Below, in pieces: positions 10,225 through 10,411 of a stretch of 11,620 bases of DNA (position 1 is its first letter; each line of letters starts with the position of its first letter). The translations under genes were made by a program, and so were the position numbers. The notes beneath the pieces were generated by a model. It did no database searches. It was not told the DNA's origin and saw nothing but the letters and a program-made list of their open reading frames with translations. Source of the stretch: a virus (taxonomy: Duplodnaviria > Heunggongvirae > Uroviricota > Caudoviricetes); IMG/VR virus record IMGVR_UViG_2531839468_000021; one strand, 5' to 3'.

Positions 10225-10238
10225 GTTGGTTAGATGTA

Positions 10239-10279
10239 ATCTGACAGATACCTGTATAAATAACCGGTAACTGTCAGAT
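10239..10279. repeat. Perfect 9-bp inverted repeat (atctgacag … ctgtcagat) with a 23-nt AT-rich spacer containing the palindrome accggt
   Basis: Read directly: left arm 10239-10247, right arm 10271-10279, which are exact reverse complements. Lies in the convergent intergenic spacer between the phage tail module and the cargo gene. Confidence 0.6.
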
Positions 10280-10411
10280 CAGGTCTGAGCTAATACATAT
10301 AAGATGATCAATGTGATTTGAAATATTTATAGGTTTACAGGGGGCTGGGCATGCATATCTTACTGCAATGCAGAATATGTGCTGCCTGGCGCAGCTCTTT
10401 ATTGAGAATGT

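Follow-up and report, generated by a model that had tools for sequence, protein, structure and literature searches.

One known setting that the locus considered here resembles is that of the exchangeable effector loci (EELs), a concept that places such loci at the end of lambda-like prophages (as cited in PMC8112680). In the present case, effector genes likewise stand downstream of the lambda-like tail-fibre genes at the prophage end, and in the loci that we read, the interval from the tail fibre to ybhB-bioA contains espV and a Peptidase_M91 (NleD-type) gene. The second known system of relevance is a 1201-bp insertion sequence (IS) of the IS481 family, for which searches of the literature yielded no usable ISfinder name. 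Intact copies, of which both ends were read, have the termini TGTATTAG...CTAATACA (TGT...ACA) and imperfect terminal inverted repeats of ca 26 bp; the reference copies are those of phage RCS47 (FO818745), the Salmonella plasmid NC_021819 and E. coli chromosomes. The target duplications are 7 bp long (TTTAATC, CCTTACC, TATAAAA, CTTAATG, AGTAAAC and GTTAAGG), and those of the IS group are AT-rich (TTAA/TAAA-like). The transposase of the intact element, taken from locus L006, scores 289.2 bits against the NCBIfam IS481 model NF033577 (cut-off 224) and has the Pfam domains HTH_29 and rve_3/rve.

Here, we analyze the spacer between the tail-fibre genes and espV in an 11,620-nucleotide stretch of Caudoviricetes DNA (IMG/VR record IMGVR_UViG_2531839468_000021), which as a whole is called the window below. 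We will argue that this spacer is very probably a mosaic scar, left by mobile-element traffic at the effector-cargo edge of the prophage, and not a purpose-built regulatory or recombination site.

The intergenic region runs from 10185 to 10411 and separates two convergent genes, namely the tail-fibre C gene on the + strand, which ends at 10184, and an espV-like ORF on the − strand, which ends at 10412. An earlier note on this DNA had pointed to an AT-rich spacer with several symmetric sites between convergent genes, and had suggested that these sites could be operators, recombination sites marking a moron insertion boundary, or terminators. The convergence is as described there, and so is the composition, with a GC content of 38.7%. 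The perfect 9-bp inverted repeat is also present (ATCTGACAG at 10239-10247 and CTGTCAGAT at 10271-10279, with 23 nt between the arms), and so are the accggt palindrome at 10263-10268 and the hairpin gctgc-ctggc-gcagc at 10381-10395, which is followed by tctttatt. The sequence ctgcaatgcag was found at 10363-10373, which is one base off the position of about 10364-10374 reported for it. Regarding the bounds of the spacer, the right edge at 10411 is correct, but the start had been set at 10226, which misses a strong terminator at 10198-10226; the true start is at 10185.

Of 2000 dinucleotide-shuffled versions of the 186 nt, 3.6% contain a perfect inverted repeat with arms of 9 bp or more and no more than 40 nt of loop, and 100% contain 5-bp stems. 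An Rfam scan of 10100-10520 at a permissive E-value returned best matches of 12-20 bits, compared to gathering scores of 41-102. One of the candidates, Esr41, was dismissed as a sub-threshold chance match, as it reached 15 bits against a gathering score of 102. Similarity searches split the spacer into three unrelated pieces, i.e. phage, IS remnant and espV flank.

The first piece belongs to the phage. The tail-fibre C-terminal/assembly gene (9915..10184, + strand; Pfam Phage_fiber_C, E = 2.7e-35) is the last gene of a lambda-like tail module with the order H-M-L-K-I-J-lom-stf-tfa, represented in the window by the tape measure, M, L, K, I, a split J, Lom, and the N- and C-terminal parts of the tail fibre. 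The tail-fibre region has ca 95% nucleotide identity with Stx phages (VT1-Sakai, 2851, 2B8 and others), and this homology stops at 10228; VT1-Sakai diverges from the window after ...ccggtttttgtgttg. The intrinsic terminator of the tail operon is situated just before this point, at 10198..10226. According to the terminator scan, it consists of an 11-bp stem, a 3-nt loop and a T-run, and folding of 10190-10232 gives −18.4 kcal/mol with z = −4.47. It is conserved in VT1-Sakai and other Stx phages. Since an A-run precedes the stem and a T-run follows it, this terminator is probably bidirectional, and it is the most credible stop for both of the convergent transcripts. The terminator role suggested in the earlier note is thus appropriate mainly for a hairpin outside the stretch to which it was assigned, while the hairpin around the 9-bp repeat, discussed below, has no U-tract.

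Several genes of the tail module appear broken in the window. In place of an intact tail-tip gene J there are two overlapping ORFs, 4474-6441 (655 aa) and 6429-7868 (479 aa), which divide the Ig_J domain between them (profile positions 1-42 and 45-104). In the sister locus L056 this gene is intact, with 1131 aa, and in L057 the same split is seen. The prophage is probably defective. Furthermore, the ORF of the minor tail protein L (2428-3054, accompanied by an ORF at 2844-3125) matches only positions 1-122 of the 206-position Pfam profile, and the tape-measure region changes frame at 456 (1-456 and 456-2102). These two breaks may be further frameshifts in the tail module.

We now consider the second piece, which carries the main inverted repeat. 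The homology to the phages ends and that to the IS begins at 10228..10232, the IS copies aligning from 10232, or from 10229 in locus L008. As the IS is truncated internally at this position, the junction represents a deletion scar. From there on, 10232..10297 (+ strand) is a 66-bp remnant of the right end of the 1201-bp IS481-family element, identical at 66/66 positions to phage RCS47 (P1-like) and to plasmids of E. coli, Salmonella, Klebsiella and others. When the 66 nt are used as the query, 1099 plasmid records match, of which 863 cover at least 80% of the query. In RCS47 and the plasmids, the matching sequence is the 3' end of a transposase gene, annotated as 'ISSod13 family' or 'IS481 family', together with the stretch up to the edge of the element. 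Positions 10232-10239 in the window are accordingly the last 8 nt of the transposase ORF, with the TAA stop codon at 10237-10239, and 10297 is the outer terminus of the IS. The transposase gene and the left IS end are both absent from the window, which means that this is not an intact, autonomous copy and that the remnant cannot move on its own. A second IS end was not found in the window either, as a search with a degenerate pattern of the terminal inverted repeat gave 1 match against 0 expected.

The 9-bp repeat and the accggt palindrome noted above find their place in this IS end. The left repeat arm at 10239-10247 has as its core the motif CTGACAG at 10241..10247 (+ strand), which comes just after the transposase stop. 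The right arm at 10271-10279 is contained in the terminal inverted repeat (IRR) TGTATTAGCTCAGACCTGATCTGACAG, located at 10271..10297 on the − strand, which matches the left-end repeat of the intact IS at 21 of 27 positions, as counted from the sequences of the two ends. Between them, the accggt palindrome is part of a subterminal motif, GTTACCGGTTAT (10260..10271, − strand), that is also found inside the left IS end. The right end has thus two inverted CTGACAG cores, one after the transposase stop and the other inside the terminal inverted repeat.

These elements can be followed in diverged copies of the IS, on a Vibrio plasmid, an Acinetobacter plasmid and in a Mannheimia phage, which have ca 74-81% identity in this region. 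The CTGACAG cores are invariant in them, as is the CTGTCAGAT core, while the loop diverges. The GTTACCGGTT motif lies inside the left end of the intact IS too, and the subterminal motif (GTTACC..TTT) changes in parallel at both ends of each diverged copy, reading GTTACCCACTT at both ends in the Vibrio case. The left/right covariation of GTTACCnnTTT can be seen at L006 1366-1445 and 2497-2566, and at the ends of L066, L067 and L068. A third copy of CTGACAG occurs in the IS group directly after the transposase stop codon. The pairing of the right-end hairpin was also compared over 6 copies, for which 92.9% of the positions are paired with 2 compensatory pairs, as against 10-34% for slid controls. 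The sample comprises 6 sequences, which represent 4 lineages, and a score as high as the observed one is reached by 20 of 500 shuffles; the conservation of the pairing in the IS copies is therefore suggestive but thin. Taken together, the comparison of copies shows that the 9-bp repeat, the longer hairpin around it and the accggt palindrome are built-in architecture of the right end of the IS. The motifs would serve the IS as recognition elements for the transposase, as a hairpin, or both.

Two further placements of this IS were encountered. In the chromosome of E. coli MEW (L065 1103-2143), an intact copy of it lies between pinQ and tfaQ of a Qin-like prophage, which shows that the IS also inserts next to tail-fibre assembly genes in other prophages. 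In the virulence plasmid pCD of Yersinia pestis Pestoides F (L069 1501-1540), there is a 40-bp fragment that is 90% identical to the right end of the IS and ca 200 bp away from yopD, i.e. another solo end beside type III secretion genes.

The tail-terminator/IS-remnant junction is not unique to the window, but is common to many EHEC and EPEC prophages. In these, the terminus of the IS is joined to the 3' end of tccP or tccP2 at a point 16 bp beyond the stop codon of the effector. The left-junction sequence is identical in the tccP and tccP2 loci. All 23 of the IMG/VR loci with the tail/IS junction are of the tccP type, and these 23, along with the best-matching junction loci in complete E. coli genomes, have a 5-bp deletion and a substitution in the terminal repeat. 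This cuts the 9-bp repeat down to 7 bp. Some of the tccP-type loci have in addition TACA changed to TATA at the terminus, ACCGGT to ACGGT, and CTGTCAG to CAGTCAG. In the sister prophages, the remnant hence appears to be a decaying fossil that is not under selection as an operator or a recombination site. Because of this decay, the repeat in the present prophage is taken not to be under selection either, and the 66-bp remnant, as judged from these comparisons, is without a maintained function in it.

The same decayed remnant, 61 bp long, was observed in every tccP/tccP2 locus examined (L004 1203-1259; L064 ~3500-3577; L071-L093), spanning the distance from the tail-fibre terminator to 16 bp past the tccP/tccP2 stop. 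On the other side of the effector gene, the tccP/tccP2 loci lose their homology ca 23 bp before the start codon and have different sequences further upstream; what they share is thus the remnant, the ORF and the ribosome-binding region. The option of a discrete tccP 'cassette' with a fixed right end was discarded on the same grounds.

The comparison with other prophages that the earlier note had proposed thus has a twofold outcome. The repeat-bearing piece does mark a junction, but it recurs beside tccP/tccP2 and is therefore not specific to espV, and it is also found within the intact IS in more than 1000 plasmids. Among the three suggested roles, a recombination site at a moron boundary comes closest, since the main inverted repeat lies within the end of a transposable element whose outer terminus, 10297, is the left edge of the effector cargo. 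The site is, however, the fossil end of an IS481-family element and not one that belongs to the phage or the cargo. That the repeat is instead an operator, or serves the phage or a cargo cassette in site-specific recombination, is an explanation to which its symmetry, its fixed spacing and its position exactly at a module boundary lend some appeal. We consider it very improbable nevertheless, as the sequence is base for base an IS end known from more than 1000 unrelated plasmids, as its motifs have suffered deletions and substitutions in the sister prophages, and as there is no gene for a regulator or a recombinase adjacent to it. The suggestion of an operator in particular is not borne out, given that the motifs decay in the sister loci.

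The IS end can form a longer imperfect hairpin, 10229-10297, around the 9-bp repeat. The calculated energy is −25.6 kcal/mol (z = −4.65), and none of the 200 shuffles gave an equally good value. The structure is stable on both strands, with −25.6 and −23.9 kcal/mol. No U-run follows the main repeat 10239-10279, and the terminator scan did not list this repeat.

The third piece is the conserved 3' flank of espV, which extends over 10298..10411 and is probably the 3' UTR of the gene (− strand, 95-97% identity). The espV-like type III secretion effector gene itself, the cargo, occupies 10412..11620 on the − strand and encodes 402 aa; it was assigned by nucleotide identity, which is 95.8% to E. 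coli genes annotated as 'secretion protein EspV', 'avirulence protein' or 'hypothetical protein' (WP_001371770). The identical protein occurs on 19 contigs. The flank is found with 95-97% identity beside espV or remnants of espV in more than 1200 complete E. coli genomes. Its homology to the tccP2-espV loci begins exactly at 10298, and the flank has at least four left breakpoints in its different contexts, namely 10298, 10359, 10386 and 10408. It may follow the tccP2 upstream region or an IS3 remnant (L005), and it is also carried by plasmids of ~100 kb. From these breakpoints, the few hundred bases 3' of espV are seen as a repeatedly rearranged region.

Two of the symmetric sites lie in this flank. 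The mini-palindrome ctgcaatgcag at 10363..10373 is broken by an A to T change at 10372 in 2 of the 5 espV loci, L003 and L004. For this reason, and since 5-bp stems are found in all of the shuffles, it is judged to be a chance feature. A long + strand hairpin, 10344-10390, which would carry ctgcaatgcag at its tip, was considered as well. It was rejected, as its z of −2.0 is marginal, L005 has another sequence in place of the left arm, and the changes in L003/L004 disrupt the apex. For the whole flank, folding gives z = −2.0 on the + strand, which is marginal, and −0.6 on the − strand, which is at the level of chance.

The GC hairpin at 10381..10395 requires more attention, as it bears on the possibility that the hairpins of the spacer terminate the convergent transcripts of the tail operon and espV, or form RNA 3'-end structures for them. 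This hairpin is followed by TCTTTATT and is listed by the + strand terminator scan, and across five loci its stem is invariant, with two variable positions in the loop. The IS-end hairpin would, moreover, be part of any transcript that reads through from espV, and is very stable on both strands as mentioned above. On the other hand, a strong canonical terminator is available at 10198-10226, outside the stretch in question, and a U-tract is missing from the IS hairpin. Nor is there a U-run after the GC hairpin on the espV strand (−), where the sequence that comes next is ACAUAUUC. Its stem is only 5 bp long, a length that every shuffle contains, its region folds with z = −1.2 (+) and −1.9 (−), and it is lost in the espV contexts where the homology starts at 10386 or 10408. 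We therefore find it doubtful, although still conceivable, that terminators account for these hairpins. The GC hairpin could possibly be a weak terminator or help to form the 3' end of espV. The transcripts of espV would probably end at this small hairpin, or continue to the bidirectional terminator at 10198-10226.

Having identified the spacer as a composite of three pieces, we now address how the espV-adjacent arrangement of the window may have arisen. The common order in E. coli is tail fibre, remnant, tccP2, ~330 bp and espV, and the window lacks the tccP2 segment. In the window, the left breakpoint coincides exactly with the IS terminus and the right one with TATAAGA. This heptamer, the first 7 nt past the IS terminus (10298..10304, + strand), looks like a target site of the IS (cf. 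TATAAAA and CTTAATG). The left remnant junction is identical in the two arrangements, which implies one shared truncation event. The right junction, being at the IS terminus and beside a target-like heptamer, appears to have been made by transposase chemistry.

We propose, with roughly even chances of its being correct, that the arrangement originated in two steps, one of insertion and one of recombination. Starting from an ancestor with the order tail fibre, 66-bp remnant, tccP2 and espV, a fresh copy of the same IS would have inserted in the same orientation at TATAAGA in the spacer between tccP2 and espV. Next, the old 66-bp remnant would have recombined with the right end of the new copy, to which it is identical, and tccP2 would have been deleted together with most of the new IS, leaving a pristine IS end that abuts the espV flank. 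This scenario would explain why the remnant is pristine in the window while every tccP-linked remnant is damaged. The predicted intermediate, in which tccP2 and espV would be separated by a full-length IS, did not turn up in 5426 complete genomes of E. coli, in JGI metagenomes or in IMG/VR, and no full IS next to the 3' end of tccP was seen in complete E. coli genomes or in either of these collections. The window differs from the tccP2-espV loci by ca 5% in both flanks, which indicates that the direct parent has not been sampled. An alternative would be an older split of the two arrangements, before the 5-bp deletion took place.

Another scenario dispenses with the second IS copy. Here, the solo right end would still be live, and a transposase acting in trans would have cut at 10297 and joined this end to TATAAGA, deleting tccP2 in a one-ended 'adjacent deletion'. 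One-ended events have been described for IS911 and ISEcp1. The breakpoint falls exactly at the IS terminus with a target-like new flank, the terminal repeat and the subterminal motifs in the window are complete and 100% identical to those of active copies, and intact copies of the IS are common in the chromosomes and plasmids of E. coli. However, transposases related to those of IS3 and IS481 normally need two ends, which weighs against this scenario. It also leaves the pristine end in the window unexplained against the 5-bp deletion in every tccP-linked copy, unless the event is old, and no second, different right flank was found on a pristine remnant. We thus regard a live solo end as unlikely. 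Less probable still is the more far-reaching idea that the solo right end constitutes a portable breakpoint for a transposase in trans, which repeatedly remodels the effector cargo by the tail-fibre genes. If this were true, the tccP2-less, espV-adjacent arrangement would be a one-ended product, and an IS fossil would be driving the exchange of effector repertoires in EHEC/EPEC prophages.

Two other routes to the loss of tccP2 were considered and discarded. A deletion between the short direct repeats tatattataatca and tataagataatca would be expected to leave 'ggtaat', which the window does not have, and the actual break coincides with the terminus of the IS. The right edge of the tccP2 segment was also inspected for a surrogate IS end, but by eye the sequence there shows no likeness to the terminal repeat.

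The window arrangement itself is absent from the 5426 complete E. coli genomes. It is present, with 100% identity over 10101-10500, in at least seven independent draft assemblies (GCA_014461385.1, GCA_000225085.2, GCA_027979505.1, GCA_041798785.1, GCA_049825125.1, GCA_000446425.2 and GCA_052592875.1), and it is therefore real and not an assembly artefact. Searches with short junction sequences returned chance matches: the 17-mer gave 44 of them in GTDB genomes, all in unrelated taxa, and the 19-mer gave 2 in IMG/VR with no homology to the window. One draft contig with the identical espV, GCA_027986495.1 (L063), ends at a position corresponding to 10309 in the window, which is 11 bp short of the IS terminus. 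This end could be an assembly break induced by a repeat, and espV in that strain might hence have another left neighbour, such as a full-length IS.

The remnant, a hitherto unannotated 66-bp end of an IS481-family element, explains the conspicuous symmetry of the spacer, and can be used to locate precisely where the effector cargo has its left edge in one family of EHEC/EPEC prophages. Given that the remnant is fixed 16 bp downstream of tccP/tccP2 and that the breakpoint in the window is at the IS terminus, IS activity, and not phage recombination alone, has shaped the effector content of these loci. The value of the finding lies mainly in annotation and evolutionary bookkeeping. It concerns an ordinary IS481-family scar next to the 3' flank of an effector gene, which will be no surprise to the specialist and opens no long-standing question.

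It is finally useful to place the spacer next to the known systems. Compared to the intact IS481-family element, the remnant makes up the right 5.5% only, with which it retains the transposase stop codon, CTGACAG, the GTTACCGGTT motif and the terminal repeat ending in ...TAATACA. With regard to rho-independent terminators, the hairpin at 10198-10226 fits the class fully and the one at 10381-10395 loosely, while the repeat at 10239-10279 differs from it, having a 23-nt loop region and no U-tract. The locus agrees with the EELs in its placing, as type III effector genes (espV, and an nleD-like gene beyond it) follow the tail-fibre genes at the end of the prophage. The EEL is, however, a positional concept that does not involve a boundary sequence, and the IS scar represents one boundary among several; in VT1-Sakai, for example, there is no IS scar at the boundary. 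There is also a likeness to the junctions of tail fibre, remnant and tccP/tccP2. The window has the identical junction between terminator and remnant and the same position of the IS terminus, but whereas the remnants in those prophages are damaged and abut tccP/tccP2, that in the window is pristine and abuts the flank of espV.
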